A DNA stretch of 64,000 nt from Thermoplasmatota archaeon (GCA_035540375.1 DATLGO010000048.1:27772-91771), one strand, 5' to 3'; shown: positions 45,769 through 64,000, numbered from the stretch's first letter. Notes: a model not told the origin generated them from the letters alone. Numbers and translations are program-made.

Positions 45769-45800
45769 TCTGGGCGGTCTAACCGCCGCCGAGGACGATC

Positions 45801-46553
45801 ATGGACAACGAGCGCGATCTGACGGTCCACGAGTTCCAGGAGGTCGACCTCCGCGGCGCGACGATCATCGACGGGTTCCCGAGCGTCGGCCTCGTGAGCA
45901 CGATCACCGCGAACTACCTCATCGACGTGCTCGAGCTCGAGCAGATCGGGATCATGGATTCGAAGTGGTTCCCGACGGTCTCCATCGTCCGCAATGGCGT
46001 TCCCCTGTACCCCGTGCGCATCTACGCGGGGAAGGGCGTGTGCGTCTTCATCTCCGAGTTCCAGCCGGCCCCCAAGCTCATCCGGCCCATCGCCGAGGCC
46101 ATCATGCAGTTCGCGCTCGCGAAGGGCGCGAAGACCGTCATCTCGCCCGAGGGGCTCGTCATCGATTCCGAAGGCGAGAAGGCGGAGGACGAAGTCGGGG
46201 TCTACGCGCTCGGGTCCACCGAGGAGACGCGGGCGATGCTGCAGAAGCACGGTCTCGAGCAGTTCGGCAACGGCATCATCACGGGCGTCTCGGGCGTCCT
46301 GCTGAACCTCGGGAAGAAGGAGGGCTTCAACGCCATCTCCATCCTCGCCGAAGCGAACCCGAACTACCCCGACGCGCGCGCCGCCGCGAAGGTGATCGAG
46401 GTCATCAACGGCCTCCTCGACCAGGTCGACATCGACGTGAAGCCGCTCTACAGCGAGGCGGAGAATATCGAGCGGACCCTCCGCATGATGCAGAAGCAGG
46501 CCGCCCCCGCCGCCGCGCCGGACCGCGACTCGGTCCCGCCGATGTACGGCTGA
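45801..46553 (+). CDS. proteasome assembly chaperone PAC2-family protein (archaeal)
   Basis: ATIIDGFPSVGLVSTITANYLIDVLELEQIGIMDSKWFP is the PAC2 N-terminal signature. Confidence 0.7.
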   Translation: MDNERDLTVHEFQEVDLRGATIIDGFPSVGLVSTITANYLIDVLELEQIGIMDSKWFPTVSIVRNGVPLYPVRIYAGKGVCVFISEFQPAPKLIRPIAEAIMQFALAKGAKTVISPEGLVIDSEGEKAEDEVGVYALGSTEETRAMLQKHGLEQFGNGIITGVSGVLLNLGKKEGFNAISILAEANPNYPDARAAAKVIEVINGLLDQVDIDVKPLYSEAENIERTLRMMQKQAAPAAAPDRDSVPPMYG

Positions 46554-46593
46554 CCCGGGAGACGCTTAAGCCGCAAGGCTGCGTTCCCGCCGC

Positions 46594-48641: not shown

Positions 48642-49487
48642 GTGAATGACTTCCGCGCGGGACCCCTCAGCGTGGACAAGGCCTTCTACGCAGCGTTGAA
48701 GCTGCACGTCTACAATTCGATCAACGACTCGCTCCTGAACGCCCTCCTCGGGGGGCGCTCCATCACCATCACGGACGACGTGAAGCTCGAGATCGCCCGC
48801 TTCACGGCCCGCCGGATCAACCACATCTTCGTCTCCGAGAACGGGAACCGCCCGAACTCGTCCTGCGAGTTCTACGGCTTCACGAGCCACAAGGTCCGCG
48901 AGAAGCTCATGGACTTCGAGGAGCGCGGCATCATCGAGCTCACGGGCAAGGGCCTGCGGGACGCCTTCACGTACCGCTGGCGCGCGCCGATCAAGCACTG
49001 GGAGATCTGCTCGTACATGCGCTTCAGGCGCCTCACGGGCGACGACCTGACGCTGAATCTCGAGCTCACGCGGGTGTTCCAGAACGTGGGCCTCGAGACG
49101 TTCACCCTCCAGGATTTCATGGGCTTCTACCACGAGGCCCACGGCGAGGAATACGGCAACACGCGCTGGGGCAAGCGCAAGTTCGAGAGCCTCGTGAACT
49201 CCTACGCCTACCAGTCCTTCCTGAAAAGCCGCCTCGAGAAGCTCGTCTCCCGCAAGCTCGTCGTCGCGACCGAGAAGGACCAGTTCGCCCTCAATCCCGT
49301 CGCGCAGGACGCGGTGAACCATTTCGACCTCTTCGTGAACGAGGTCGCCTACCACCCGTCCCGCGAGATGTGCCGCGCGTGCCCCATGGACGCGCTCTGC
49401 CGCGCGGGCTCCACGCAGCTCGTCGTCATCACGCTGAACAAGAATCAGGACCCCCTTCCGACGCCGCCGACGCTGAAGATCGAGTAG
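48642..49487 (+). CDS. hypothetical protein (281 aa), possible winged-helix segment
   Basis: GTG start. The amino-acid composition (N, F, Y, K-rich) is atypical for this genome. SHKVREKLMDFEERGIIELTGKGLRDAFTYRW resembles a wHTH. C-terminal CRACPMDALC. Confidence 0.45.
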   Translation: MNDFRAGPLSVDKAFYAALKLHVYNSINDSLLNALLGGRSITITDDVKLEIARFTARRINHIFVSENGNRPNSSCEFYGFTSHKVREKLMDFEERGIIELTGKGLRDAFTYRWRAPIKHWEICSYMRFRRLTGDDLTLNLELTRVFQNVGLETFTLQDFMGFYHEAHGEEYGNTRWGKRKFESLVNSYAYQSFLKSRLEKLVSRKLVVATEKDQFALNPVAQDAVNHFDLFVNEVAYHPSREMCRACPMDALCRAGSTQLVVITLNKNQDPLPTPPTLKIE

Positions 49488-49491
49488 GCTG

Positions 49492-49514
49492 GCCGCCCTC
49501 CTTCTCAGGGCGGC
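49492..49514 (+). terminator. hairpin gccgccct-ccttctc-agggcggc immediately after the stop of the 48642..49487 gene
   Basis: The inverted repeat was read from the sequence. Confidence 0.4.
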
Positions 49515-49604
49515 GTCGGAAGCGACGGGGTCACCCCGAACCAGCCCGCATCAGGACCCCCTTCCGACGCCGGCGAAGGCGGCGCCAAAGCGCCGCCAAG
49601 CCGC

Positions 49605-49625
49605 CAACGAACCCGCAGTTCGTTG
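49605..49625. repeat. hairpin caacgaac-ccgca-gttcgttg, sharing its core with the tuf-downstream hairpin and flanked by 28-31-nt direct repeats
   Basis: Read from the sequence. The direct repeat ggcggcgcc(aa/gc)agcgccgccaagccgcc lies at about 49578 and 49634. Confidence 0.5.
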
Positions 49626-49712
49626 AGCGCGAAGGCGGCGCCGCAGCGCCGCCAAGCCGCCGCCGAGCCCACAGGCTCGGCGAGCGCCGACGCTGAGGAC
49701 GGATCGCCGAAC

Positions 49713-50387
49713 CTACGCCGCGCGCCGCGTCTTCAAGGCGAGGTACCCGAGCGACGCGAGCGTCGTGAGGCCGACGAGGACGGCGGCCCCGTGGAGGCTG
49801 CGGGCCTCGACGCTCGCCCCGAGGACGGGGTGGAGGAGGCCGAAGATCGTCGGTCCCATGAGGACCGCGACGAGCACGATCGCGGCCGCGATCGCAAGAA
49901 GCCTCAGCTGACCCGCCCGGACCGCGGAAGCCGCGGCATCGAGGCGCGCGATCGTGCCGGGGGGCGCGGCCGCGGCGACGTGGAGGAACTTCGCGGCGAG
50001 GGTCGCGTTCTCGACGAAGACGACGAACCCGAGCCCGCCGGCGAGCGCGATCACCCATTCGAGGAGGGACGGAAACGCGGTCGCGACGGGGAGCGCGACG
50101 AGGATCGCGAGAAGGCCTCCCGCGGCCGTCTGGAGGTAGGCGAGGCGTTCGCCGCGACCCTCCGGGTCGTTCTCGACGTTGAAGCGCGAGGCCCGCACGA
50201 GCCCGTGCCGCGCGATCGCGGTGGCCGCGAGGCCCGCGGCGAGGGTGAGCGCCGGAATCTCGACGACGCCGAGGAACGGACGGTCGCCGAGGAGGGCGAG
50301 GCCGCCCGTCGCGAGGGCCGTCGTCGCGAGGCCCGCGGTCGCCATCGCGATGCTCGATCGGGCGCCGCGGCCGATGTCGCGCGTCAA
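49713..50387 (-). CDS. polytopic membrane protein, last gene of the MoxR operon
   Basis: 224 aa with at least five hydrophobic helices. The start overlaps the DUF58 stop by 4 nt (ATGA). Confidence 0.5.
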   Translation of the reverse strand: MTRDIGRGARSSIAMATAGLATTALATGGLALLGDRPFLGVVEIPALTLAAGLAATAIARHGLVRASRFNVENDPEGRGERLAYLQTAAGGLLAILVALPVATAFPSLLEWVIALAGGLGFVVFVENATLAAKFLHVAAAAPPGTIARLDAAASAVRAGQLRLLAIAAAIVLVAVLMGPTIFGLLHPVLGASVEARSLHGAAVLVGLTTLASLGYLALKTRRAA

Positions 50388-51640
50388 AGCAGCGCCTCCC
50401 GGGCGAAGGTGACGGTGATCGGCTCGGCGGTGTCCCAGTCGACGACCACGGCGCCGTAGGACTTCATCTGGGCGATGGCCGTCTCGCGCTCGAGCATCGC
50501 GGTCTCGTACTCGGCCGTGCCGGGCGCGATGCCCGCCTTCTCGAGGAAGGCGCCCGCGCGCGGGGTGACCACGAGGACGCGCATCTCGTAGGCGCGCAGG
50601 GCGCGAACGGCCTCGCTCGCGGTGCCGTCGTCGAGGAGGTTCGAGATGAGGATGATGGGGCTTCGCGGCTTCAGCATCGGGAGGATCTGTCCCACGGCCT
50701 CGAGGGCCTTCATCGCGCCCTTGCCGTCGGCGTCCGCGAGGGCCTCCGAGAGCGGGATGATGGGCTTCTCGGTGCCGGTGAGGCGGACCTCGCGGATCGC
50801 GTCCTCGTAGAAGATGAGCCGCATCTTGTCCCGGCGCTTGAGGAGGAAGCCCGCGAGCGAGACCGCGGCGCGCGATCCGTACACGATGGCGTTGTCGCGC
50901 ACGGTGCCGAGGCGCGCGATCTCGCGGTTGTCGAAGAGGATCGTGACGCGGGCCTGCGTCTCGCGCTCCGTCTGGTTGACGATGAAGTTCTTGCTGCGCG
51001 CGCTCGCCTTCCAGTTGATCGATCGGTAAGGGTCGCCCGTCATGTATTCGCGCAACGCGAAGAACGACGAGCCGTAGCCGGGTTGGCCGACGATGTAGTC
51101 GCCCGCGACGACGAGCGGGAACTTGCTCTTCGTGAGCGCGTCCCGCAGGTCGAATTGGCGCGGGTAGATCGTGAGGAACGTCACGCGGTCCACGTCGTTG
51201 TCCTCGTGGAAGAGCCCGAACGCGTCCTGCACGCGGAGCCGCACCGGCCCGAGCGAGAACTTCCCCTTGATGGGCGCGCGGAGCACGTAGTCCATCTCAA
51301 GCGGCTCCGCCGAGAGCGCGGTGAGGACGTAGTTCGAGCCGCCCGCGATCTCGAGACCGGGCGGGAGGGTGTCGCGGATCTCCGCGAACACCCTTCCGCG
51401 AAGGCCCTTGGCCTCGACGCGGAGCCGCGTCTTGACCTCGGCGCCCTCGTGGCCGACCTGGCTCGAGGTCTCGCGCGTGGCGCGGATGTCGACGGACTTC
51501 ACCGTGAAGGCTGCGGCGGCGAGGAGGGCGAGGCCCGCGAGGCCCGCCGATCCGACGACCGGCGCGTCGAACACGAGGCCGACCGAGACGAGCAGTCCCG
51601 ATCCGGCCGCGGTGAGCGCGCCCTTCAGGGTGAGCTTCAT
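50384..51640 (-). CDS. DUF58-family protein (MoxR partner), two N-terminal TM helices
   Basis: GDYIVGQPGYGSSFFALREYMTGDPYRSINWKASARS is the hallmark DUF58 motif. Confidence 0.85.
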   Translation of the reverse strand: MKLTLKGALTAAGSGLLVSVGLVFDAPVVGSAGLAGLALLAAAAFTVKSVDIRATRETSSQVGHEGAEVKTRLRVEAKGLRGRVFAEIRDTLPPGLEIAGGSNYVLTALSAEPLEMDYVLRAPIKGKFSLGPVRLRVQDAFGLFHEDNDVDRVTFLTIYPRQFDLRDALTKSKFPLVVAGDYIVGQPGYGSSFFALREYMTGDPYRSINWKASARSKNFIVNQTERETQARVTILFDNREIARLGTVRDNAIVYGSRAAVSLAGFLLKRRDKMRLIFYEDAIREVRLTGTEKPIIPLSEALADADGKGAMKALEAVGQILPMLKPRSPIILISNLLDDGTASEAVRALRAYEMRVLVVTPRAGAFLEKAGIAPGTAEYETAMLERETAIAQMKSYGAVVVDWDTAEPITVTFAREALL

Positions 51641-51647
51641 CGACGTC

Positions 51648-52667
51648 TCACACGGTGGGAACCGGCGCCTCGCGGACGATCTCGTTCACGACGTCGTGGT
51701 TCTTGACGCCCCGGATCTTCGATTCGGGCCGCAGGATGATGCGGTGGGCGAGGATGTGGGGCGCGACGAACTTGACATCGTCGGGGACGACGAAGTCGCG
51801 GCCCGACATGGCGGCCTTGCTGCGGCAGGCCTTGAGGAGCGCCTGCGAGCCGCGCGGCGAGGAGCCGACGTAGATGTCGGGGTGGCCGCGCGTGCGGACG
51901 ACGAGGTCGGCGATGTAGTCGATCATCTCGTCCGAGATGTAGATCGTCTCGATCGTCTGCTGCATCGCGATGACCTGCTGGGGGTTCGTGACGGCGGACA
52001 CGTCGACGTCGTCCTTCGCCCGACGGATGCGGCGGCGCAGGATCTCGGCCTCGTCGGCCTTCGCGGGGTACCCGACGCTGAGCTTCATGAGGAAGCGGTC
52101 CATCTGGGCTTCGGGCAGCGGGTAGGTACCTTCCTGCTCGACCGGGTTCTGCGTCGCCATGACGAGGTACGGCTTGTCGAGCTTGAGCGTCGCGCCTTCG
52201 ACCGTGACCTGGCGCTCCTGCATGGCCTCGAGGAGAGCCGATTGGGTCTTGGGCGGGGCGCGGTTGATCTCGTCCGCGAGCAGGATGTTGGTGAAGACCG
52301 GGCCCGGGCGGAAGTTGAACTCGCTCGACTGCTGGTTGTAGACGTACGTGCCCGTGATGTCGCCGGGAAGCACGTCGGGCGTGAACTGGATGCGGCGGAA
52401 GTCGCAGCCGGCCGCGCGCGCGAACGTGTTCGCCATGAGCGTCTTCGCCATGCCGGGAAAGTCCTCGAAGAGGATGTTGCCCGACGAGAGGATGTTGATC
52501 GTGACGAGCTCCAGCACCTCGCGCTTGCCGACGATGACCTTCGCCACCTCGTCGATGAGGCGCTTCGTCGTGTCGGCGAGCCGGACGACGTTCGGGTTCG
52601 GGGGGCGCTGCGGGCGCGCCTGGGCGAACGTCTTCGCTGCCTGGGGTTTCGTGGCCATGATTATCAC
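51648..52667 (-). CDS. MoxR-family AAA+ ATPase
   Basis: ILFEDFPGMAKTLMANTFARA (Walker A variant, AAA_3), LLADEINRAPPKTQSALLEAMQERQVT (Walker B and sensor), 339 aa. Confidence 0.93.
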   Translation of the reverse strand: MIIMATKPQAAKTFAQARPQRPPNPNVVRLADTTKRLIDEVAKVIVGKREVLELVTINILSSGNILFEDFPGMAKTLMANTFARAAGCDFRRIQFTPDVLPGDITGTYVYNQQSSEFNFRPGPVFTNILLADEINRAPPKTQSALLEAMQERQVTVEGATLKLDKPYLVMATQNPVEQEGTYPLPEAQMDRFLMKLSVGYPAKADEAEILRRRIRRAKDDVDVSAVTNPQQVIAMQQTIETIYISDEMIDYIADLVVRTRGHPDIYVGSSPRGSQALLKACRSKAAMSGRDFVVPDDVKFVAPHILAHRIILRPESKIRGVKNHDVVNEIVREAPVPTV

Positions 52668-53890
52668 CTGCTGCCTTTGCCGTAGTTCCGGATCCTTGTC
52701 AGGAGATCCTTGAGGGTATCGTCATCGCTTGCGCCGTTTTCGCCGCGCACGACGCGACGCAACCGGTCGTCGGTCGCGAGGACCGCGAGCGTTTCGGGGG
52801 CGGGCGACTCCTCGCGCACGCCGTGGACGGCCCGCACGCGCTCGCGCGCGAGGCGCGTAATGCGCTCGATCGGGCTCGCCATGGGGGAGGTCCGGACGCG
52901 GGCGAGGCCGCTCCGGTGGTGCGTGAGCCGCTCCTCGGGTTTGACGAGGGCGAGGAGCACCGCGATCGCGAGGCCGAGGGAACCGAGGAAGATCCACTGC
53001 CAGAACGGGTCCTTCGTCGGCACGACGAGCGACGCGAGGCCCGCCGCGGCGAGCCGGGCCTGGGGCGCGGGCGCGTGACGCGATTCGTCGAAGAGGATGG
53101 TTCCGGCGTTCGACCCGCGGGCGAGCGCGTCGGGGAGGGCGAGGGCAAACTTGCGGTTGTCGCTCCCTGCGGCGTCGAGCATCTCGTTCGTGAAGAGGGC
53201 GGGGTCCGCGATGAACATGACGGTGCCGCGGCCGTGCGCGACGACGACCATCTGGGGGAAGGGACCCTTCGTGTCCGTGTCGTCCTTGCGGCGGTTCCCG
53301 TCGTTGTCGAGGTACGAGTCCGGCGAGCTCGTCGCGACGATCCGGGCCGAGGGGTTCGCGCCGGAAAGAAGGCTCGGGCTCACGGTGAGGGCCGTGGGCT
53401 CGTTGAGAAGGAGGTCGAAGGTCAGGTCCTCGCCCTTGCTCGTCGTGAGGAGCGCGCGGGCGCGGGCGAGCGAGACGTTCTTCTGGAAGTTGGAGTCGAG
53501 GAGCGGCACCTTGTCGAAGGTGACGCCGAACTTGACGGCGAGCGTGTTCGCGAAGCCGAAGTCGTCCGCGACCACGAGGACGCCGCCGCGCGTCACGAAG
53601 TCGTCGAACGCCTCGATCTCGGAGGCCGAGTACGGCCGGCTCACGCCGACCGCGAACACGATGTGGGCCGCGGGATCGGAGACGCCGCGCAGCACGAGCG
53701 GCGTCGAGGCGATGGTGTCCGTGTTGTACCCGAGGCCCCCCGCGAGGCTCGCGCGGTACGCGCCGAGATCCGCGCGGCCCGAGCTGTAGGATCCGAGCTC
53801 CGGGGGCGGGGAATAGAGGATCGCGACGACGGCGCCCCCGACAATGAGGGCGGCAAGGAGGACGGCCGCGAGGCCGAGCGCGCGCTTCAC
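52664..53890 (-). CDS. DUF4350-like protein (N-terminal and C-terminal TM helices flanking a large extracytoplasmic domain)
   Basis: The GTG start (VKRALGLAAVLLAALIVGG) overlaps the stop of the giant upstream gene (GTGA). C-terminal TM FWQWIFLGSLGLAIAVLLALV. The stop overlaps the MoxR start (GTGA). The 5' 2.4 kb of the track ORF 52664..56311 overlaps the giant gene out of frame and is rejected. Confidence 0.6.
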   Translation of the reverse strand: MKRALGLAAVLLAALIVGGAVVAILYSPPPELGSYSSGRADLGAYRASLAGGLGYNTDTIASTPLVLRGVSDPAAHIVFAVGVSRPYSASEIEAFDDFVTRGGVLVVADDFGFANTLAVKFGVTFDKVPLLDSNFQKNVSLARARALLTTSKGEDLTFDLLLNEPTALTVSPSLLSGANPSARIVATSSPDSYLDNDGNRRKDDTDTKGPFPQMVVVAHGRGTVMFIADPALFTNEMLDAAGSDNRKFALALPDALARGSNAGTILFDESRHAPAPQARLAAAGLASLVVPTKDPFWQWIFLGSLGLAIAVLLALVKPEERLTHHRSGLARVRTSPMASPIERITRLARERVRAVHGVREESPAPETLAVLATDDRLRRVVRGENGASDDDTLKDLLTRIRNYGKGSR

Positions 53891-56800
53891 GCGCCCGCCT
53901 CCTTCGCGCCGCCCTTCGTGCGCCGGATGCGCGCGAGGTCGGCGTTGAGCGCGGCGAGCGCGCTCAGGGCGCGGTCGCGCTCGGCGGGCCCGACGCCGTG
54001 GGCGGAGTACCGCGCCTCCTCGAAGAGCGAGACGAGCGCGTCGAGCGGCGCCGCGCGCACCGGGAGAGCCGCCTTGACGGCGGCGCCGAACTCCTGCGCC
54101 GTGACGTCCGGCGTCGTCGTGTACCCGAATTTCACGAGGTAGTCGCGCAGGCGCCGGTAGGCCATGAGAATGGTGGCCGAGTACTCGTCGCCCGCGACGA
54201 GCGCGGCCTGCGTGTCGAGGAGGATGCGCTCGGCCTCGGTGACGCGGCTCTTCCTGTACCAGGCGACGAGGAGGCTCACGATGGCCGCGACCGCGAGAGC
54301 GCCGATGAGCGCGAGGACCCACGAGTTGCCGGCGCCGCCGAAGGCGCCCGTGGAGATCTGGATGCGGGTCGCCTCGTTCGTGGGCAGCAGGTCGTCGGTC
54401 CCGCCGAAGCGCACGTCGAGGTCCGAGGCGCCCGCTCCGGTGACCTTCCCCGGGAAGGAGGCGTGGCCGGTCGCGTTCGTCTTCAGCGTGAACGGGTAGT
54501 ACGAGCCGCTGAAGTGGACGCGGAGCACGGCGTTCGGGACGCCGAGCCCCTCGTCGTCGAGGAGCTGGACGGTGCCCGTGAAGCTGTCGCCCACCGCGAG
54601 CTTGCGGGGGACCACGACCTCGAGCCGGGTCATGCTGATGACCTCGACGAGCGCGATCGCCGAGGCGGGCGTGTGGCTCTGGTCGCCCGCGTAACGGACC
54701 TCGATCGGGACCCGGGCGCGCTCGAAGTCGGCCGGGATGAGGGCCGCGACGTGGAAGCTCCCGTTCGGGGCCGTGCTCGCGCGCGCGAGGAAGGAGCCGT
54801 TGAAGATGAGCTCCACGGAGGCGCCGGGGACGCCGAGGCCGTTCTCCTGCTTGAGGCGGCCGTCGAACTCGAAGACCTGGCCGCGCACGGCGCGCGGGGG
54901 CGGGTGGATCTCGAGCACGGTGCGCGAGAGCAGGCGCAGCGACCCGGTCGCCCCCGAGGGCGCGTAGAGCGTGGAGCCCTCGTAGCGCGCCTCGATCGGG
55001 TAGACCTTCGCGGCGACCCCGGAGGTGTCGAAGCCGGCCTCGGCCTCGCCGCGGAAGTCGGTCGGAGTGACCGTCACGGGCGATCCGAGGAAGGTGACGC
55101 CGACGATCTCGCCGCCGATGGGCCGGCCGGCGTCGTCGTGGAGCGTGAAGTTGTACACGACCTCGCCGATCGCGGCGGTGAGGTGGGGCATGCGAATCGA
55201 GGTCGCGCTCAGGACGCGCACCGTCGAGACGAGCTCCGGCGCCCCGCGCAGGAGGCCGTCCGCGCTCCCGTCGTAGCGGGCGCGCGCGAGGACGGGGCCG
55301 AGGCTCGCGTTCGCGGGGAGCGTGAGGGGCGCGCGGAATCCTCCGGTCGCGTTCGTCACGAAGACGCCGAGATGGCGCTCGCCGAGCGTCACGTTCACGC
55401 TTTCGCCGCGGACGGGCCGCTCGTAGGCGTCGACGACGACCCCGACGAGCGCCTGCGGAACGCCGCGCACGAGGGCCTTCGTCTCGAGGCTCACGCGCGT
55501 CGCGGACGTCGCCGGAACGCGGATCGAGGTCGAGGCGGGCCCGTAGAAGTCGGATCCCGCGAATCCGAGCGCGAACGTCACGCTCCCGACCTTGGGATAG
55601 ACGTTCCTCGGGATGGTGAGCGAGAAGGTTCCCGTCGCGTTGTCCACGCGCGCCTGGGTCGCGTAACCCTCCGTCGAGATGCGGATGACGAGCGCGTCGC
55701 GCGAGGTGGGGTCGCGCGCGGGGCCGCCGCCCACGTCCCGGAGGGTCCCCTGGATGACCGCGTCCTTCGCGATGTCGAGCGCCGTGACGCGGATGAGGTC
55801 GGCCCCGAGGGGCTGGAGGATCTGCGCCTCGAGGACGGGCCGGGCCCGGATGGTGACGAAGCTGAGCTTCTGCGAGGAGGCCTGGTAGAGGTCGGATCCC
55901 TCGAAGACGAGGGAAACGGGCTGGTTGCCAGGACTCGAGTCCTCGGGGATGAGGATCTTGAAGGACGCGACACCCTGCGCGTTTGTAACCGCCGTGTGGA
56001 GCGCTCCGAGGAAATGGAGACCGACGGTCTCGTTGCCGACGACCGCCCCCCGGAAGTTCCTGAGGGTCGCCTCGGCGACGAGATCGCCTCCCGCAACCGC
56101 GATGAGACGATCGTTCAGCACGCGGCCGGAGATCTTCGTGGGGAACGCGATCGCGACGCGGGCCTTCCCCGTCGAGGCGCCGTAGAGCTCCGATGGCGTG
56201 GTCTCGAGCGGGAGGTCGAAGTAGCCCGGCTCCTGGGCGGCGCCGGTCGGGAAGCTGATGTTGAACCGCCCCTCCGCGTCCGTGGTCGCGCTCTTGCGGA
56301 CGCCGTTCCACGTCATGAGCACCGGCCTCCGCGGCGCGGGGTCACCCGACCCGTCGAGGAGGCGCGCGGTGCCCCCGATCTCGCCGTTCGGCGTCGTGCG
56401 GAGCGTGGGTCCGGCGTCGAACGTGGTCGGCGTGCGCAGGCGGAGCGTCTGTGTTGCCACCACGGGCGTCTCGAACGTGCCGCGGATGCCCCGGGCCCGG
56501 TAGACGGTGGAGCCCGCGCCGTCGACGACGTCGGCGGCGGTCCACTCCGCGTGGGCGCCGATGCCGTAGCTCCAGAGAAGGACGCGGTAGCTCGTGATCG
56601 CTGGATCGAGCGCGACGGAGGCCGTGTCGAGGGTCCAGCTCACCGTGGATCCCGGAGCGTGGACCTTGCCGAAGAGCACCACCGGGCCGCAGCTCGAGGG
56701 AATGGTGACGGATTGCGCGCGCACGAGCGAAAGCGTGAGCGAGAAGCGGCCGGCGGCGTCCGTGAACGCCACGCCCGCGACGCGGGACGGGTCGCTGCGG

Positions 56801-59800
56801 GCCCTCAGGTTGTCCTTCGAGGCGTCGTTCCAGGCGAGGTTCGCGAGGATGGGGACGCAGGCGCGGTTGACCCAGTTGCGCGTCGAGGCCGCCGGGGCGA
56901 GCGTCCCGTCGACCGCAAGCGAGCCCCCCTTGAGCAGGATGTCGTCCTGACCGGAGTGGTGCGTCACGACGAGGTCCTGGATCACGACGTCCGCAAGCGC
57001 TTCCCAGATCGGGCACGTGTCGCCGGGAAGTCGGGTCGAGGCCACGCTGAGGCGGCCTTCGCGCATCACCCAGGCGTTCCGGAAGGCGGGGTCCGCGGGG
57101 TCCGCCTCGCCCGTGTTCATCTGGTCGTAGAACGGGTGCGGATCCTCGCCGACGAAGTCGTTCAGCCCGTCCTTGTCGTAGTCGAAGTTGTTGCCGAGGA
57201 TCTTGCCCGTGATCGGGTCGATGAAGCCGTCCTTGAAGGGCGGTCCCGCCTTGCACGAGCGCGTCGCGATGTTCGTGTCCGTGCGGTTGCCCGCGGCGCC
57301 GAACCACCAGGTGCCGGTCCACGACGGCGGGCGGCCGATGTCGTACCGCTGGCCTTCGGACAGGTCGCCGAAGCGCGAGACCGTGCGGGTGTCCTGGAGC
57401 GGGTCGTACCCGTAGAGCTGCTCCCACCCGTCGGGGATCCCGTCGTCGTCCGAATCCTCGTCCGTGGGGGAGGTTCCGACGGCGCACGTTCCCCCGTCGG
57501 GGCATCGCTCGCCGTAGAAGATGTATCCGCCCGGAATGCGCGTGTGCACGATGCCCGCGGCGATGAGCGCTTCGACGTGCTCCGCAAGGTCCGGCTTCGA
57601 GAGCGTCGCTTCGCACGTCGCGGGGAGGGCGCCGCCCGCAAGCTGCGCCTGCCAGTTCGGGCCGTCGAGGAGGCCGTCGCCGTCGGTGTCGAAGGCGACG
57701 ACGCTCGTCGGGGGATTGAGCGCGAGCTCGTCGGCGGCGCTGAGGCCGTCGCAGTCCGCGTCGGAGGCGCCGAGGTCGTCGAGCGGGTTCAGCGGATTGG
57801 ATCCCGCGAGCTTCCCTTCCTCGGTGACCTCCTTGCCGTCGCCGAGGCCGCCGAAGTCGCTGTCGGGATTGAGGGGATCGGTCGGGCCCGGCATGCCGGG
57901 CTCGAAGGAGACCTTCCACTCGTTGACGTTCGAAAGCCCGTCGCCGTCGCAGTCCGATTTCCCGCCGAGGGGGTTGCGCGGCTCGAAGAGGCTCACGCAG
58001 GAGACGTAGGCGGGGCTCGCCGAGGCGAGCCGGCGCGTGCGCGCCTCCCACCAGTCCGGCATCCCGTCGCCGTCGGTGTCCGGCACGAGCGGGTCCGTGC
58101 GGTTCTCGTACATCTCGCGCCAGGTCCAGCGGAACGGGCCCTGGATGATGTAGACCGTGAATTCCTCGGCGCGGCCCTGGGCCTTCACGCGGTGGTACCC
58201 GTTCGTCGGGGCGAGGAGGGTCTCCGAGGGCGCAAGCGTCGCGGGCGTGCCCTCGGGGACGCCGAGGGTGCGCACGTACGTGGTCTCGAACCCGGTGGCG
58301 TTCACGTCGCCGGGCTTGAGCGGGTCCATGCAGCCGCACGGCGACGCGACGCCGGGGGCGTGCGAGCCGACGCGGGAGAAGTAGTATTCCCACCCGTCGG
58401 GAACGCCGTCGCCGTCCGAGTCCGCGCGGTGGGGATCGGTCTTGAGCGCGTACTCGTCGAGGTTCGTGAACGCGAACTGGAACGGGAACAGGGTGCCGAC
58501 GCGGTGGTCCACGCCGTCGCCGTCGAGGTCGCGCGTCGTGTCGGAGAGCCCGTCCTTGAGGCACGACCCGAGGCTGTCGACCCGCGTCGGATCGAGGTCC
58601 CACGCGAAGCACGCGTGGACGTACCAGGCGTGGCGGATCTCCCAGCCGTCGTCGAGCGAGTCCCCGTCCGTGTCGAAGAGGGCGGGATCGGAGGCGGGGA
58701 AGGGGTACGCGTCGAGCGCCCCCGGGGCCGCGAGGCGGCGCTCGGGCTTGAGCTCGGCCCCGTCGTTCACGCCGTCGCCGTCGGCATCCGCGTTCACGAC
58801 GTTCGGGGCGTCCTGCCAGCGGCCGCAGCCTTCGCCGAGGCGTCCCTGGGGCAGGAGCGCCTCGCGGGCCTGCTGGAGCGACCACGTCTCGCCCTTGCAG
58901 CGGCGGTGCTGGTCGATGATGCGGTTCAGCTCCTCGGGCGTCGCCTGCTGGGAGCGGGTCGTCCAGTACTCGACCTCGGCGCCGTCGAGGATCCCGTCGC
59001 GATCCGTGTCGGACTCGACGGGGCTGAGCGGCGGGGACACGGCGAAGGCGACCTCGTCGAGATCGTCGATGCCGTCGAGGTCCGTGTCGGGCGTGAGGGG
59101 ATCGAGCGCGCACGGGACGCCCGCCTTGGCGGCCGTGTCGTAGCAGAAGTCGACGCGGCGGCCCGCGATGACCGAGAAACCCTGACGCTTCTCGAAGTCG
59201 GTGAAACCCGAGTTGGCGCTGTCCGCGCGGGCGGGATTGCTCCACACGTGCGTCGTGCGACCGTCGACCGTGACCGACCAACCGAGGACGACCTCCTCGA
59301 AGTCGTTGAGGCCGTCGCCGTCCGTGTCGCGCCGCCGCGGATCGGCGCCCGAGAGCGCCTCCTCGAGGTTCGTGAGGCCGTCGCCGTCGGGGTCCGTGAG
59401 CGGCCCCACGACGAAGGCGGGAAGCGAGGCGCGCGAGAGCCACGCGGGGAGCGAGATGTGGGTGAGGAGCGCCGCGCGCACGCCGCCGCCGTCCGCCGCC
59501 GAGAGCGGGTCGAGCCCGTGCGCGACCTCCCACGCGTCCGACATGCCGTCGCCGTCGGAGTCCGCCCGCGTCGGGGAAAGCCCGCGCGCGAAGAGGGGCG
59601 CGAGCTCGTCGCCCGAGAGGTTCGCGTAATTGAAGCGGGCCGCGGTCCAGCGGAACTTCTCGAGCACCGTCATGCCGGTCCCGTCGAGGCTCCGGTAGGC
59701 GAGGCCCGGGTCGAGGGCGTCGAGCTTCCAGTGGAGGAGCCAGCCGTCCGCGATGCCCGCGCCGCTCGTCGAGTATCGCGTCGCGTTCGTGCGCGTCTCC

Positions 59801-60465
59801 GTCATCTCCTTGAGATCCTCGAGACCGTCGCCGTCGGAGTCGAGGCGCGAAGGATCGAGGCCGAGCGCGAAGTTCTCGAGGTTCGTGAGACCCTTGCCCG
59901 AGCAGTCCCGCGTCGCATCGGGAACGAGCGGGTCCGGGCACGCGGTCCCGTTGTCGGGGCCGCGCTTCGCGTAACGGGCCTCCCAGGCGTCCGGGAGCCC
60001 GTCGCGGTCCGTGTCCGCGTGGTTCGGGTCCGTTCCGTGCCGCTCCTCGTCGCGGTTCGAGAGGCCGTCGCGATCGCAGTCGCCGTCCGCGTCGGGAACC
60101 ACGGGGTCGGGACAGTACGTTCCGGAGACGAAGTCGTAGCTTCGCTTCAGCGCCTCCCACGCGTCGGGAAGGCCGTCGCCGTCCGTGTCCGCGGAGTCGC
60201 GCGCCGTGCCGTAGGAGAACGTCTCGTCGAGGTCGGAGAGCCCGTCGCCGTCCGTGTCGATGAAGGCGAGATTGCCGTCCGGCGTCGCGGTCGCGAACTC
60301 GATCTGTCCCGTGCCCGCGGTCTGCGTGAGGCTCGGAAGGACGGCGGCGCCGACGAGGAGGTTCGCGAGGAGGACGAGCGCGAGGACCGCGGGAGCCACC
60401 TTCGCCTTCTGCGCCCAGGCCCACCGCGCCATGCGGGTCGCGGCTTCGCTTCCCGGAAGCGTCAC
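53887..60465 (-). CDS. giant (2192 aa) surface protein with a TSP3-like repeat region, a beta-sandwich domain array, a TM helix and a DUF4129-like cytoplasmic tail
   Basis: N-terminal signal/anchor (VAPAVLALVLLANLLVGAAVL). About 19 D-x-D-x-D-G-x-x-D-x-x-E repeats (for example DTDGDGLSDLDE, DSDGDGMSDAWE, DTDGDGMPDWWE). Repeated roughly 100-aa beta-sandwich modules. TM helix NSWVLALIGALAVAAIVSLLVAWY. C-terminal tail with ...TPDVTAQEF...LFEEARYSAHG... resembling DUF4129. Confidence 0.8.
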   Translation of the reverse strand: MTLPGSEAATRMARWAWAQKAKVAPAVLALVLLANLLVGAAVLPSLTQTAGTGQIEFATATPDGNLAFIDTDGDGLSDLDETFSYGTARDSADTDGDGLPDAWEALKRSYDFVSGTYCPDPVVPDADGDCDRDGLSNRDEERHGTDPNHADTDRDGLPDAWEARYAKRGPDNGTACPDPLVPDATRDCSGKGLTNLENFALGLDPSRLDSDGDGLEDLKEMTETRTNATRYSTSGAGIADGWLLHWKLDALDPGLAYRSLDGTGMTVLEKFRWTAARFNYANLSGDELAPLFARGLSPTRADSDGDGMSDAWEVAHGLDPLSAADGGGVRAALLTHISLPAWLSRASLPAFVVGPLTDPDGDGLTNLEEALSGADPRRRDTDGDGLNDFEEVVLGWSVTVDGRTTHVWSNPARADSANSGFTDFEKRQGFSVIAGRRVDFCYDTAAKAGVPCALDPLTPDTDLDGIDDLDEVAFAVSPPLSPVESDTDRDGILDGAEVEYWTTRSQQATPEELNRIIDQHRRCKGETWSLQQAREALLPQGRLGEGCGRWQDAPNVVNADADGDGVNDGAELKPERRLAAPGALDAYPFPASDPALFDTDGDSLDDGWEIRHAWYVHACFAWDLDPTRVDSLGSCLKDGLSDTTRDLDGDGVDHRVGTLFPFQFAFTNLDEYALKTDPHRADSDGDGVPDGWEYYFSRVGSHAPGVASPCGCMDPLKPGDVNATGFETTYVRTLGVPEGTPATLAPSETLLAPTNGYHRVKAQGRAEEFTVYIIQGPFRWTWREMYENRTDPLVPDTDGDGMPDWWEARTRRLASASPAYVSCVSLFEPRNPLGGKSDCDGDGLSNVNEWKVSFEPGMPGPTDPLNPDSDFGGLGDGKEVTEEGKLAGSNPLNPLDDLGASDADCDGLSAADELALNPPTSVVAFDTDGDGLLDGPNWQAQLAGGALPATCEATLSKPDLAEHVEALIAAGIVHTRIPGGYIFYGERCPDGGTCAVGTSPTDEDSDDDGIPDGWEQLYGYDPLQDTRTVSRFGDLSEGQRYDIGRPPSWTGTWWFGAAGNRTDTNIATRSCKAGPPFKDGFIDPITGKILGNNFDYDKDGLNDFVGEDPHPFYDQMNTGEADPADPAFRNAWVMREGRLSVASTRLPGDTCPIWEALADVVIQDLVVTHHSGQDDILLKGGSLAVDGTLAPAASTRNWVNRACVPILANLAWNDASKDNLRARSDPSRVAGVAFTDAAGRFSLTLSLVRAQSVTIPSSCGPVVLFGKVHAPGSTVSWTLDTASVALDPAITSYRVLLWSYGIGAHAEWTAADVVDGAGSTVYRARGIRGTFETPVVATQTLRLRTPTTFDAGPTLRTTPNGEIGGTARLLDGSGDPAPRRPVLMTWNGVRKSATTDAEGRFNISFPTGAAQEPGYFDLPLETTPSELYGASTGKARVAIAFPTKISGRVLNDRLIAVAGGDLVAEATLRNFRGAVVGNETVGLHFLGALHTAVTNAQGVASFKILIPEDSSPGNQPVSLVFEGSDLYQASSQKLSFVTIRARPVLEAQILQPLGADLIRVTALDIAKDAVIQGTLRDVGGGPARDPTSRDALVIRISTEGYATQARVDNATGTFSLTIPRNVYPKVGSVTFALGFAGSDFYGPASTSIRVPATSATRVSLETKALVRGVPQALVGVVVDAYERPVRGESVNVTLGERHLGVFVTNATGGFRAPLTLPANASLGPVLARARYDGSADGLLRGAPELVSTVRVLSATSIRMPHLTAAIGEVVYNFTLHDDAGRPIGGEIVGVTFLGSPVTVTPTDFRGEAEAGFDTSGVAAKVYPIEARYEGSTLYAPSGATGSLRLLSRTVLEIHPPPRAVRGQVFEFDGRLKQENGLGVPGASVELIFNGSFLARASTAPNGSFHVAALIPADFERARVPIEVRYAGDQSHTPASAIALVEVISMTRLEVVVPRKLAVGDSFTGTVQLLDDEGLGVPNAVLRVHFSGSYYPFTLKTNATGHASFPGKVTGAGASDLDVRFGGTDDLLPTNEATRIQISTGAFGGAGNSWVLALIGALAVAAIVSLLVAWYRKSRVTEAERILLDTQAALVAGDEYSATILMAYRRLRDYLVKFGYTTTPDVTAQEFGAAVKAALPVRAAPLDALVSLFEEARYSAHGVGPAERDRALSALAALNADLARIRRTKGGAKEAGA

Positions 60466-63400
60466 GGGGCGACCCTCCGCCTAAGGAGCAGGGCCGCGCC
60501 GAGCGCCGCGACGACGATCGCGAAGGCCGGAACGGGCGTGAAGGCGCCGCTTGATCGGGCCGAAAGGTCGTATTTGAGGGCGTTGTTCGCGCGGTTCTCC
60601 TCGTGGAAGCGGTTCGAGGGATCGATCGCGATCTCGAACGTCGAGGCCCGGATGACGTTCCACGGGAGCTGGATCTTGCGGGCCTCGTTTGGGGCGAGGC
60701 TCTCGAGCGTCGCGTTCTTCACGACCTGCCCGTCCGCGACGAGCGCGACCTCGACGCGGCTCGCGGGCACGGTGCCGTTGTTGAGGACGGTGATCTCGAA
60801 GAGGACGGTCTCGCCGACCGCGAAGCGGTTGGCCTTCGCGTCGACCTTCACGACGCTGAGGTCGAGGCGCTCGATCACGAGGTCGATCGGCGTCACGCGC
60901 TCGCGCTCCTGGTTGATGACGCCGCGGACCTCGAGCCGCGCGCTGTCGCTTGTGGCGTTGCGCGGCGCGGTGACCTCGAAGGCCACGCGCGTGGATTGGC
61001 CGGGCTCGAGCCTGACGATGCGGTCATCGGGCCGCTCGAACCGCATCGTCCAACCCGGGGGCGGGACGGTCTCGAGGACGATCTCCTCGGGACCGTTGCC
61101 GGTGTTCGTGACCGCGAGCGCGACGCGCGTCTTTCCGCCGGGACGGACGAACCCGTCGGACTCCACGATGGCCTCGTAGTCGAAGAATCGCTTCACGCGG
61201 GCCGCGACGACCTTCTCGAACAGGTGGCGCGAGCCTTCCGCGTCCGAGAGGAGGAAGCCGACGCCGATCGCGAATTCGCCCGGATCCTCGTTGGGCTTCG
61301 CGGCGACGACGACCGAGACGGCGCGCGCCTCGCCCGGCAGCAGGTCGAAGGTGCCCGGCGGATTGACCTCTGCGAAGGACCAGCCGGGCGGGAGCGCGGA
61401 GGGCACGAGAGAGACCCGCATCGCGCCGTTCGCGCGGCTTGCGATCTCGAAATCGAAGCTCACCTTGGCGCCCGGGTCGAGACTGCGGGGGAGCGGGGTC
61501 GGAACGACGAGTGTGAAGTTGTTGACGACGATGGCGGTCACGCGCGTCGCGTTCTCCTTGAGGCCGCCGTCGGCTTCCTCGGTGAGCGCGGTCGCCTTCA
61601 CCTGGAAGGGAAGCACCTGACCGACGCGCGCGCTCGGTCCCGGCAGCACCGAGAGGTTCACGACCCGGCTGTCGCCCTGGCCGCGGAGCGTCACGCGCGA
61701 AGGCTCGATCGCGTACGTCCAGTCGGGGGCCGCGGGGGAGACGACGCCGAGGACGACCTCCGTGTCGCTTCCCAGGTTCGTGACCTTGATCGGGAGGTGC
61801 GTCGTCGTTCCGGGCGTGACGCGGAAGGTCGAGTTCTCGGCGTCGACCCGAAGGTCCGTGCGGATGTTGATGCTCACCGTGGCCGTGACCTGGTCCTGGG
61901 TCGAGGCGTCCGCGACCGAGGCGCCCTGGACGACGAACTCCCATTGGAGGGGGAGGTCGTTGCGCGGCGCGCGCACGCGGAGCTTGACCTCCGTTTCGCC
62001 CTTCTCGGGGAGCGCGACGCGACCCTTGAGACCCGAGGAATCCGCGATGCGGCGGCCCGCCGCGTCGACGATCTCGGCCGTGAACGGGAAGCCGCCGGGA
62101 CCGCCGGGGCTCACGGAGAGCGTGACGTTGTCCGCGCCCGTGCCCGTGTTCTTCACGAGGACCGTGAACTCGTGCGTGCCCGCGGACTGGAGGCTCGCGA
62201 ACGAGGTCTTGGCCTGCGCGACGCGGCCGACGAACGACATCTGGAAGTCGTAACGCGTCTGCACGCTCACCGTGACGCGCGCGGTATCCTGGATGCGCGG
62301 GTTGGCTCCGCTCGTGAGCGTGAGGTTGAAGGTGATCTGCTCGCCGGTCTTCACCGAGGGGTCGATGCGGATCGCCACGGTGACGTCGCGCGTTCCGCCC
62401 GTCGGGATCGAGCGCTCGATCGCGGTCGAGACCGTGACGCGCCATTTCTGGGTCGAGCCCTGGAAGTCCTGGTCGATCTCGAAGTCGTCCGTGATGCTCG
62501 TGTTGCCGAGGCCGCGGCCGAGGTTCACCGCGGTGAGCGTGAACTTGGCCGTGTCGCCCGGCTTGAACGTCCCCGAAAGCGTTCGCTCCTTCCACGCGAC
62601 GAGGTTTCCGTAGAAGTTGACGATGCCGACCTCGATCTTCACGGGCGCGAGCGTGCCCTGGTAGAACGTCCCGTAGAGCTGGCTCCCCGGCGTGTACACG
62701 TTCACGAGCACGGGCTTCGACGCTTCCACGCGGAAGAAGGCGTCCTTCGCGCCCGACCGGAAGATGGGCTGGTTGTTCTGGCGCCACACGTAGTCGTTCT
62801 GGTTGAGCGTCCGCGTGAGGCGCGTCGTGAACTGGGTCGTGCCGTTCGCGAGGAGGGTTTCCTCCTTGACGGTCACGACGGTGTTGTTGTGGACGGGAAA
62901 GATGTTCATCCATCCCGGGAGGCTGTTCGACCCGGTGGAGGGGATGCGGACCTCGAAGACGCGGCCGCCGTCGAGACCGCCCGCGGCCATGTATCCTCGT
63001 CGGCCCGAGGCGACCGAGATGGGTCCTCCTTCGACCGCGTAGAAGGTCCAGGGCTCGGCGCGGTCGTTGTGCGTGTTCTGGCTCTGGACGTTCGAGCGGA
63101 CGGCGTGCGGCTTGATCGTGAGGGTTCCGTCGCAGTACGGGATGCGGCCGAGCTGCGGGGGCGTCGTGAGCTGGTCGCAGGTCGGCGAGACCATGCGCGT
63201 TCCGATGAACTCGGTGGGCGCGTAGGCTGTCGTCACGAAGGACCGCGCGAAGGCGCCGTAGACCTGGGTTCCCGCCGGTGCGCCGTGCTTCGACGGCATC
63301 TGGTAGAGATAGTTGTCGTTGGCCCCGGTCGTGAACACCATGATGCGGCCTTCGGCTTCGATCCGCATCGGCGATCCGTCCGACCCGACGAGGGTCGCGC

Positions 63401-64000
63401 TCGGGATGTTCACGGGCGTTTCCTTCGGAACGCGGTTCGACCACCTCGGGCCGCTCTGCGATACTCGAGCGTCGAAGATGCGCACCTCCGTGGGGCCGTC
63501 GAGCGCGACGATGTACATGGGGGTCGGCGACGTGTCGCTCTGGGGCGCGGACGCGGGAAGGAAGTGGAAGCGGCGACCGACGATGCCCCCGTCGACGGCG
63601 GGGACGACCGTCGCGGTGGGATAGAACGTCCCGACCGTCTCGGGCGGGTTGGGCCGGTAGAGGTAGTCCTGCCTCAGCGAGACCGTGACGGGCTTCGACG
63701 CGACGACCTTGAAGTAGAAATCCTGGTCGCCGTTCACGACGGTGACGGTGAGGGGCGTCGCCTGGAAATGGTCGCCCTCGATCACGATCCCGCCGTCGCG
63801 CATCTTCGTCTTCTCGTTGCCGGGGATGCAGGGCGGATTGTTCCGCGCCTCGCCGCAAAGCGGGATCGGATCGGGCTCGAAGTTCTCGAGCCGGTAGCGA
63901 TAGAGCCTGACGGTCGTGTTCGGGAAGTGCGGCATGACGTCGAGCACGGCCGGCGCGCCGGCTTCCGCGCCGTTCGCGGGAGCCCACCCGTAGAAGGTGG
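60462..64000 (-). CDS. giant surface protein with a CARDB/DUF11-type domain array and PGF-CTERM-like C-terminal anchor, 5'-truncated by the window edge
   Basis: Repeated CARDB-like units (FTVLVKNTGTGADNVTLSV; VKVDAKANRFAVGETVLFEITVLNNGTVPASRVEVALVADGQV). C-terminus ...GAFTPVPAFAIVVAALGAALLLRRRVAP. The stop overlaps the next start (ATGA). The reading frame stays open upstream to the window edge (no in-frame stop 63948-64000). Confidence 0.75.
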   Translation of the reverse strand, partial: TFYGWAPANGAEAGAPAVLDVMPHFPNTTVRLYRYRLENFEPDPIPLCGEARNNPPCIPGNEKTKMRDGGIVIEGDHFQATPLTVTVVNGDQDFYFKVVASKPVTVSLRQDYLYRPNPPETVGTFYPTATVVPAVDGGIVGRRFHFLPASAPQSDTSPTPMYIVALDGPTEVRIFDARVSQSGPRWSNRVPKETPVNIPSATLVGSDGSPMRIEAEGRIMVFTTGANDNYLYQMPSKHGAPAGTQVYGAFARSFVTTAYAPTEFIGTRMVSPTCDQLTTPPQLGRIPYCDGTLTIKPHAVRSNVQSQNTHNDRAEPWTFYAVEGGPISVASGRRGYMAAGGLDGGRVFEVRIPSTGSNSLPGWMNIFPVHNNTVVTVKEETLLANGTTQFTTRLTRTLNQNDYVWRQNNQPIFRSGAKDAFFRVEASKPVLVNVYTPGSQLYGTFYQGTLAPVKIEVGIVNFYGNLVAWKERTLSGTFKPGDTAKFTLTAVNLGRGLGNTSITDDFEIDQDFQGSTQKWRVTVSTAIERSIPTGGTRDVTVAIRIDPSVKTGEQITFNLTLTSGANPRIQDTARVTVSVQTRYDFQMSFVGRVAQAKTSFASLQSAGTHEFTVLVKNTGTGADNVTLSVSPGGPGGFPFTAEIVDAAGRRIADSSGLKGRVALPEKGETEVKLRVRAPRNDLPLQWEFVVQGASVADASTQDQVTATVSINIRTDLRVDAENSTFRVTPGTTTHLPIKVTNLGSDTEVVLGVVSPAAPDWTYAIEPSRVTLRGQGDSRVVNLSVLPGPSARVGQVLPFQVKATALTEEADGGLKENATRVTAIVVNNFTLVVPTPLPRSLDPGAKVSFDFEIASRANGAMRVSLVPSALPPGWSFAEVNPPGTFDLLPGEARAVSVVVAAKPNEDPGEFAIGVGFLLSDAEGSRHLFEKVVAARVKRFFDYEAIVESDGFVRPGGKTRVALAVTNTGNGPEEIVLETVPPPGWTMRFERPDDRIVRLEPGQSTRVAFEVTAPRNATSDSARLEVRGVINQERERVTPIDLVIERLDLSVVKVDAKANRFAVGETVLFEITVLNNGTVPASRVEVALVADGQVVKNATLESLAPNEARKIQLPWNVIRASTFEIAIDPSNRFHEENRANNALKYDLSARSSGAFTPVPAFAIVVAALGAALLLRRRVAP

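Follow-up and report, generated by a model that had tools for sequence, protein, structure and literature searches.

A 64,000-nucleotide (nt) stretch of DNA from a Thermoplasmatota archaeon (GCA_035540375.1, DATLGO010000048.1:27772-91771), here called the window and with positions counted from its first letter, carries six open reading frames (ORFs) on the minus strand between positions 49713 and 64000. These genes, g1 to g6, encode in this order a giant CARDB protein, a giant TSP3 protein, a DUF4350 protein, a MoxR AAA+ ATPase, a DUF58 protein and a membrane protein, and they are preceded by a third giant gene, g0, beyond the window end. Judging from their arrangement and its recurrence, we consider them a real, conserved and functionally coupled archaeal envelope system, of a kind that had been predicted before. 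Here we show that the constant core of this system is a surface protein anchored by a DUF4129 domain, together with the DUF4350 and DUF58 proteins, and that MoxR is facultative and the least constant member. We lean towards the reading that the genes encode one membrane-spanning assembly, with an array of giants outside, a hub inside, and MoxR acting wherever it is encoded.

The evidence for this core comes from a comparison of the window with the gene neighbourhoods of ten further loci (L088-L097). The order is complete in L088, L090 and L095, where a g0 of 4048-4189 amino acids (aa) is followed by a g1 of about 1370 aa, g2, DUF4350, MoxR, DUF58 and a ~225-aa membrane protein; genes overlap by 4 nt at most junctions of L088 and L090, and the spacers of L095 are wider. 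The cluster is rearranged in the other seven (L089, L091, L092, L093, L094, L096 and L097). In L091, MoxR has changed its place and stands after the small membrane gene, L096 keeps g2, a DUF4350-like gene, MoxR and DUF58 without g0 and g1 upstream, and the contig of L094 stops just past g2. No MoxR gene is present within the DNA stretch examined at L089, L092, L093 and L097, all of which retain the DUF4129 giant, DUF4350 and DUF58, with DUF4350 directly before, or fused to, DUF58 (L089:16473-18964, L092:16081-18347, L093:7029-9209 and L097:8894-11313). The L097 giant is a DUF4129 protein of 1363 aa with only a stalk of immunoglobulin-like (Ig) domains, and DUF4350, DUF58 and a protein of 202 aa come after it. 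All ten clusters whose downstream part can be read thus have the DUF4129 giant, DUF4350 and DUF58 next to one another; the small membrane protein occurs in seven of these and MoxR in six, and g0 and g1 are frequent.

The relatives that share the cluster are distant, with g2 identities of 26-37%, and the adjacency of giants and module is, given this recurrence, conserved and not fortuitous. Within the best 120 homologues of g2, about 80 belong to its length class and have a membrane helix that lies 130-158 residues before the C-terminal end, and a strict F-E/D-x-A-R/W-Y motif is present in 54. Homologues of the g2 class are mostly 1870-2304 aa long, three of them reaching about 3,270-3,300 aa, and those with a named source belong almost without exception to Thermoplasmatota metagenome-assembled genomes. 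One of the long forms, P0056 (L094:10001-19825, 3274 aa), is a fusion of g1 and g2: its first ~1216 residues align with g1, and residues 1284-3274 with g2. P0047 and P0073 are of the same size class. A second fusion, of 726 aa, joins DUF4350 to DUF58 in L093:7029-9209. Both fusions support a physical association of the products concerned.

What, then, is g2? From its N-terminus, the protein runs through a signal or anchor helix and an outer domain of about 2000 residues to a single membrane helix, behind which lies a DUF4129 tail; NCBI annotates it as 'DUF4129 domain-containing protein' (HVL48010.1). Its outer domain starts with 17 loose TSP3-type motifs within residues 70-1103, predicted to bind calcium and of the kind repeated (as DxDxDGxxDxxE) in bacterial TSP3 proteins, and continues in a stalk where comparison of the protein with itself by BLAST places repeats at about residues 1233, 1341, 1460, 1571, 1763 and 1964. 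Transglut_core is absent from its Pfam matches. The F-E-x-A-R-Y motif of the DUF4129 domain is invariant across 29 homologues, and an AlphaFold model of the tail, with a predicted local distance difference test (pLDDT) score of 88, shows a single continuous helix running into a four-helix bundle, which is predicted to be cytoplasmic. A sequence search of the PDB with g2 returned no useful relatives. Because of its C-terminal membrane helix and DUF4129 domain, g2 corresponds to the small DUF4129 protein found in ordinary MoxR-DUF58 loci. It is thus the DUF4129 subunit of a common MoxR-DUF58 module with a hugely enlarged outer domain, and not merely a client or substrate.

How common that module is can be seen from a background set of 80 MoxR loci across bacteria and archaea, taken from a scan of GTDB genomes with MoxR. 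Single window proteins used as phmmer queries on these loci recovered almost no DUF4350 and no g6, and profiles built from orthologues were used instead. With the g2-tail profile, which covers the membrane helix and DUF4129, a DUF4129-type ORF of 116-545 aa was found to adjoin MoxR-DUF58 in about 42 of the 80 loci, and Pfam identified DUF4129 in all ten of these ORFs that were tested. A Micrarchaeota locus (L052) even has the order of the window, with a transglutaminase-DUF4129 protein of 478 aa followed by DUF4350, MoxR and DUF58. Over the whole search, the tail profile matched 10,497 cluster representatives at E <= 0.001, and the best 150 of these form groups by length, at around 200-700, 1000-1500 and 1870-2960 aa. 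The DUF4129 tail is common to varied outer domains: a transglutaminase core, an Ig stalk only, TSP3 plus Ig, or CARDB plus TSP3 plus Ig. The nearest MoxR genes in reference genomes (Thermoplasmata and Poseidoniales, 58-62% identical) stand in another context, which means that MoxR alone does not trace the cluster. In Poseidoniales (Marine Group II; L009-L015) this context is itself conserved, with a ~151-aa gene, a ~600-aa gene, MoxR and a ~318-aa gene, and neither DUF4350 nor DUF4129 was detected at these loci.

In g3, helices at residues 9-25 and ~300-316 enclose an outer DUF4350 domain, and a tail of about 92 residues follows that is basic just past the second helix. This agrees in Pfam match and topology with the arCOG01314-type architecture of an N-terminal anchor, an outer domain and a single C-terminal membrane helix; the family has been described as arCOG01314 and as GldG-like (PMC5898192). 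A weak ABC_transp_aux match was also seen. The Walker A (GMAKT), Walker B (LLADEINR) and sensor-1 (ATQNP) motifs of g4 are intact in translation, ATPase activity is predicted, and the protein has neither a signal sequence nor a membrane helix. A DUF58 gene immediately downstream is the hallmark of the MoxR-proper subfamily after Snider and Houry (as cited in PMC12067865), and g5 does follow g4 directly, across a spacer of 7 nt. The g5 protein has an N-terminal two-helix membrane hairpin and then an Ig-like and vWA-like body, with positive charges at the N-terminus and in the stretch past the hairpin. The DUF58 signature G-x-G-x-x-F-x-x-x-R-x-Y...W-K-A-S-A-R is conserved in its alignment. In place of the DxSxS of a canonical vWA adaptor, its metal-ion-dependent adhesion site (MIDAS) is degenerate and reads D-N-R-E-I, orthologues having D-x-R-x-hydrophobic with only the Asp invariant. 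Useful relatives of g5 were not found in a sequence search of the PDB. The last protein, g6, matches no Pfam family above its cut-off, and its orthologues occupy the same position in six other loci and are poorly conserved. A homologue search with g6 matched g6 alone, which reflects a word-index limit and is not evidence of an orphan. One orthologue (L095:20423-21106) has a sub-threshold TgpA_N match (18.3 bits against a cut-off of 30); g6 and g2 may thus correspond to the two halves of a TgpA-like protein whose outer domain has been exchanged, which we offer as no more than a lead.

The layout of the genes (Table 1) is that of a tightly packed operon. ORF analysis bears out the six minus-strand genes, the coordinates and the order proposed in an initial annotation made from the sequence, and the CARDB, TSP3, DUF4350, AAA_3 and DUF58 assignments made there all score above the curated Pfam cut-offs. 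The count of six genes does not stand: g0 ends 21 nt upstream of g1, the largest spacer within the operon, which has at least seven genes in the order g0 (at least 3824 aa), g1 (1417 aa), g2 (2192 aa), DUF4350, MoxR, DUF58 and a five-transmembrane (5-TM) protein. Overlaps reading ATGA or GTGA had been placed at four junctions, and the positions are right. Three of them (60462-60465, 53887-53890 and 52664-52667) read GTGA, and 50384-50387 reads TTGA, from the TTG start of g6. The overlap at 52664-52667 depends on the start of MoxR, which is either the overlapping GTG at 52667 or an ATG 9 nt downstream at 52658; the public gene call takes ATG 52658, leaving a 5-nt gap and no overlap with g3. The 7-nt gap reported between g4 and g5 (51641-51647) is correct. 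Calcium binding had been ascribed to both giants. Only g2 has TSP3 repeats, which are predicted to bind calcium; g1 is of the CARDB/Ig type, and no calcium-binding signature was found in it. Models of bacterial promoters and terminators are unsuited to an archaeon, and we searched for archaeal signals in the form of AT-rich 8-mers and T-runs. Across 49.7-64 kilobases (kb) of the window, whose G+C content is about 70%, there are no T-runs of five or more and only two AT-rich 8-mers, neither inside an intergenic spacer, so that there is no sequence sign of internal archaeal promoters or terminators. The tight packing and the lack of such signals between the genes fit a single transcript. In GenBank, the proteins are HVL48006.1 to HVL48010.1, annotated as hypothetical, DUF58, MoxR family ATPase, DUF4350 and DUF4129 domain-containing protein.

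Table 1. Features of the cluster in the window, with the basis of each call.
Feature	Position	Strand	Basis
g1	60462..64000, frame open to window end	-	ORF calling
g2	53887..60465	-	ORF, 2192 aa
g2 acidic TSP3 region, residues ~70-1106	57148..60258	-	17 TSP3-type DxDxDG motifs; TSP3_bac 66.4 bits
g2 Ig-like stalk, residues ~1230-2030	54376..56778	-	Big_1 / MG4 / CarboxypepD_reg-like Pfam matches
g2 membrane helix, residues ~2044-2066	54268..54336	-	Hydropathy; basic YRKSR next
g2 DUF4129 domain, residues 2102-2170	53956..54162	-	PF13559, 39 bits (cut-off 24.8)
g3, DUF4350 protein	52664..53890	-	ORF, 408 aa; PF14258, 61.8 bits (cut-off 30.4)
g4, MoxR AAA+ ATPase	51648..52667	-	ORF, 339 aa from GTG, 336 aa from ATG; AAA_3 217.4 bits (cut-off 27), AAA_lid_2 78.1 bits (cut-off 22.7)
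g5, DUF58 protein	50384..51640	-	ORF, 418 aa; PF01882, 51.9 bits (cut-off 23.4)
g6, alanine-rich membrane protein	49713..50387	-	ORF, 224 aa, TTG start; five hydrophobic segments, invariant Glu E194
Structured GC-rich spacer, possible terminator	49488..49712	.	Operon 3' end, between convergent genes; RNA fold z = -4.07

The two giants upstream of g2 are secreted Ig/CARDB-type proteins with a C-terminal hydrophobic anchor. On the source contig (L007:3-5729, L006:1-5729), g0 is 3824 aa long in one assembly, its N-terminus lying beyond the recovered sequence, and carries CARDB, NPCBM_assoc and DUF11-type repeats and a C-terminal anchor. Its orthologues are 4048-5265 aa long, some with Laminin_G_3 and MAM-like domains. 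Of g1, the C-terminal 1178 codons lie within the window and the first 239 outside it. The protein starts with a signal peptide and a conserved N-terminal region, continues in Ig-like, NPCBM_assoc and CARDB repeats (61.1 bits for NPCBM_assoc and 56.5 for CARDB, both above the curated cut-offs) and ends in a hydrophobic anchor followed by RRR; it aligns over its full length with seven orthologues. In these, the N-terminal ~740 residues (window 60462-64000, L007:5751-8030) are conserved, and no Pfam family covers them. Directly after the signal peptide stands a W-W-x-x-x-W-x-x-R-V-P motif, which may resemble the beginning of DUF2341-type lectin-like domains. A homologue search with the N-terminal 760 residues of g1 returned no matches, not even g1 itself, which again reflects the word-index limit and not an orphan, and a PDB sequence search with g1 gave no useful relatives. 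The tails of g0 and g1 are built alike, from a short motif of Pro and Gly, then a hydrophobic helix and lastly a run of Arg, a shape that is kept in the orthologues and that would suit an archaeosortase-type sorting signal. The scores stay under the cut-offs of the archaeal models: PGF_CTERM (TIGR04126) reaches at best 14.0 bits where 24.5 are required, and Loki-CTERM reaches 18.0 bits with a cut-off of 19.9, in each case on orthologue tails. The g1 tail of the window itself scores 12.1 bits in this test, and GC_trans_RRR, of the MYXO-CTERM type, barely passes its 15.85-bit cut-off on two g1 tails. Given these scores, we describe g0 and g1 only as C-terminally anchored.

Basic residues directly past the membrane helices of g2 and g3 give a first indication of how the proteins may be arranged. 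Between the DUF4350 and DUF58 domains of the L093 fusion lie a first helix, a linker rich in Arg and two further helices, and this helix count would place the DUF58 body on the opposite side of the membrane from the DUF4350 domain. Thus, the DUF4129 bundle, the DUF4350 tail, the DUF58 body and MoxR are predicted to be cytoplasmic, and the DUF4350 domain and the giants to lie outside. In such an assembly, the three giants would form a calcium-stabilised array around the GldG-like DUF4350 domain, and the DUF4129 tail, the basic DUF4350 tail and the vWA-like DUF58 body would form a hub on the inner side. A MoxR hexamer, when encoded, would remodel this hub with ATP, as an ATP-driven accessory and not as part of the core. 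The output of the hub would be to organise, anchor or remodel the giants, in other words the assembly, spacing or turnover of a calcium-stabilised coat or adhesive layer.

Several points weigh against this arrangement. The neighbourhood sample is small and non-random, its loci having been chosen from matches on long contigs, and the cluster is known from metagenomic sequence alone, all relatives included. The topology was derived only from hydropathy and the positive-inside rule, and Makarova et al. regard the Ig-vWA (DUF58-type) protein as probably secreted (PMC5898192). Structural comparison of the DUF4129 fold gave no informative neighbour. The degenerate MIDAS of g5 makes the metal-mediated grip of classical MoxR adaptors doubtful here, and the clusters without MoxR render any model that requires this ATPase incomplete. 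Finally, the contacts of g0 and g1 with the module are putative.

The initial annotation had proposed that the MoxR module is dedicated to the maturation, insertion or remodelling of the giants, and a version of this idea is the first alternative to consider: MoxR and DUF58 would be a dedicated cytoplasmic chaperone, with the giants as clients that are kept export-competent or helped in insertion and maturation. The genes are co-operonic and tightly packed, the MoxR motifs are intact, and there are precedents. MoxR1 of Mycobacterium tuberculosis is reported to interact with RipA, encoded next to it, and to be required for RipA export (summarised in PMC12067865), and the PFNA cluster of Bifidobacterium encodes a large FN3 surface protein alongside MoxR, DUF58 and a transglutaminase (PMC8430577). 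However, MoxR is missing from four of the ten readable clusters in which the giants, DUF4350 and DUF58 stay. Furthermore, calcium-binding and Ig domains fold outside the cell, beyond the reach of a cytoplasmic ATPase, and g2 bears the module's own DUF4129, which makes it a partner rather than a passing client. We therefore regard a dedicated chaperone as unlikely, and the earlier claim of a dedicated MoxR module as overstated, since MoxR is the least constant member.

A dedicated secretion system, in which DUF4350, DUF58, the 5-TM protein and MoxR are the export machine and the giants its cargo, is the explanation that Makarova et al. favour from the GldG similarity of DUF4350 and the neighbouring surface proteins (PMC5898192). 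The weak ABC_transp_aux match in g3 would agree with this, as would the conserved position of cargo-like giants upstream. No channel-forming or translocase-like component was detected in the cluster, however, and g6 is a small and poorly conserved 5-TM protein. Moreover, g1 and g2 begin with ordinary signal or anchor sequences, for which the Sec route suffices. MoxR is facultative here, and MoxR-type ATPases are remodellers and not translocation motors, which also counts against an export machine. Taken together, this makes a dedicated secretion system rather improbable in our view.

That the genes adjoin by chance, or form independent transcription units that merely happen to lie head to tail, is much harder to reconcile with the data. 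Internal promoters are possible in principle, as in the analogous Pseudomonas aeruginosa operon PA2875-PA2874-tgpA (PMC3507681). The order is nonetheless kept in relatives that are 26-37% identical, the same junctions show 4-nt overlaps again, two gene fusions have arisen independently, and AT-rich or T-run signals do not occur between the genes. The adjacency that the initial annotation wished to see compared across archaeal genomes thus does recur, and we consider coincidence very unlikely. That the cluster is a MoxR-vWA-type conflict or defence system with the giants as sensors or effectors is hardly credible: ternary systems of this kind have been described (PMC7159879) and g4 does pass the bpMoxR cut-off (30.3 bits against 27), but this score is far below the 217 bits of AAA_3, no cluster protein matches any PADLOC model, the six products include no beta-propeller, effector domain or MIDAS-competent vWA, and the surroundings are housekeeping genes, with the ligase and PAC2 neighbours kept in a relative whose g2 is 36% identical.

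The assembly that we favour is best compared with the archaeal neighbourhood of arCOG01314, which Makarova, Galperin and Koonin predicted in 2015 to be a secretion or membrane-remodelling surface complex (PMC5898192). All five of its classes, namely DUF4350, MoxR, Ig-vWA/DUF58, Ig-like surface or S-layer proteins and a 5-TM protein, are found in the window and its relatives. The differences lie in the giants of at least 3824, 1417 and 2192 aa, in the fusion of DUF4129 to a giant, where the passages of the 2015 description consulted here make no mention of DUF4129, in the placement of the DUF58 body in the cytoplasm and not outside, and in the facultative nature of MoxR. The initial annotation had called the configuration uncharacterised; this holds for experiments, and the general configuration was part of the 2015 prediction (PMC5898192). 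What had been predicted already is the general association of DUF4350, MoxR, DUF58 and surface proteins in archaea. New here are the giant size, the DUF4129 fusion, the natural g1-g2 and DUF4350-DUF58 fusions, the constant tail that bears exchangeable outer domains and the dispensable MoxR.

Outside the archaea, likenesses are found in several operons. For P. aeruginosa, we take PA2875 and PA2874 to be MoxR and DUF58 proteins and TgpA, a transglutaminase of the inner membrane, to end in a DUF4129 domain. The three genes are co-transcribed, PA2875 being dispensable and tgpA essential (PMC3507681). The last product of that unit is, like g2, an envelope protein with an outer domain on a DUF4129 tail, and the dispensable PA2875 parallels the facultative MoxR described here. 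In contrast to TgpA, g2 lacks a transglutaminase core and has a TSP3 plus Ig outer domain that is about ten times larger, and the window adds DUF4350 and two further giants. The polytopic TgpA_N domain is present at best as the separate g6, by the sub-threshold match of its orthologue, so that DUF4129 is found and a TgpA-like protein as such is not. The Bifidobacterium PFNA cluster (pkb2-fn3-aaa_atp-duf58-tgm), in which MoxR has been proposed to help the FN3 surface protein (PMC8430577), likewise encodes a large secreted adhesion-type protein beside MoxR, DUF58 and a transglutaminase-like membrane protein. It differs in being bacterial, in its Ser/Thr kinase, in lacking DUF4350 and in having a surface protein that is not fused to DUF4129. 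In M. tuberculosis, secreted envelope proteins (ripA-ripB) adjoin the moxR1-DUF58-vWA operon (PMC12067865); there the clients are cell-wall hydrolases of small size, the operon includes a true vWA membrane protein, and DUF4350, DUF4129 and giants are lacking. The initial annotation had also pointed to Bat-type operons, which in Bacteroides and Borrelia comprise MoxR, DUF58, the vWA proteins BatA/BatB and TPR proteins (PMC5700661) and share with the window the MoxR-DUF58 core and the membrane proteins. The Pfam matches of the six products include neither a vWA nor a TPR family but DUF4350 and DUF4129 instead, and the label does not apply.

As for its surroundings, the rest of the window encodes EF-1 alpha, DnaK, CTP synthase, isocitrate and malate dehydrogenases, an ATP-dependent DNA ligase, PAC2 and an AMP phosphorylase-like protein. 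These are archaeal housekeeping genes, which indicates that the cluster is part of the ordinary chromosome. The DNA ligase and PAC2 genes flank it on the opposite strand (45783-48447) and do so as well in L088 (L088:21862-24537), where g2 is 36% identical; the locus is therefore old and stable on the chromosome, and no mobile island. The structured spacer that closes the operon at its 3' end contains a direct repeat of 46 nt, whose two copies (49573-49618 and 49629-49674) each include a GC hairpin; the repeat motif has no other copy in the window and is without a U-tract. This spacer may be a bidirectional terminator, and a convergent ORF of 281 aa on the plus strand (48642-49487), without any family, lies beyond it. 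In five relatives, the small membrane gene is succeeded by a gene for another Ig/CARDB surface protein, 890-1250 aa long (L090:21083-24796, L095:21093-24857, L096:19709-22390, L092:18374-21835 and L093:9829-12861), a position taken in the window by the structured spacer and the convergent ORF. No Rfam family and no tRNA were found within the window.

Few prokaryotic proteins that lack a known mechanism or known targets are as widespread as MoxR, DUF58, DUF4350 and DUF4129. The source organism is an uncultured soil archaeon, and the mechanism cannot be demonstrated from sequence alone. The fusion of the DUF4129 handle to a recognisable giant, the joining of DUF4350 to DUF58 in one relative and the two further giants that accompany them turn 'substrate unknown' into a testable proposal, in which the module would lie beneath a surface array and act on it through cytoplasmic tails. 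Furthermore, the fact that MoxR is dispensable for the conserved core shifts attention to DUF58 and DUF4350. A bolder version of our proposal, which we hold to be improbable, is that the DUF4129 tail, DUF58 and MoxR form an archaeal inside-out coupling device that would resemble in function the integrin tails with their cytoplasmic adaptors, where the AAA+ motor would act via DUF58 to pull on or reorganise the four-helix tail of g2, and so switch the conformation, clustering or adhesiveness of the coat. If this were true, DUF4129 would be a general docking handle through which MoxR-DUF58 controls interchangeable outer domains across bacteria and archaea, and TgpA-type operons would be explained as well. 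For the soil Thermoplasmatota, whose cell surface is essentially unstudied, this cluster may be the main envelope or adhesion apparatus.

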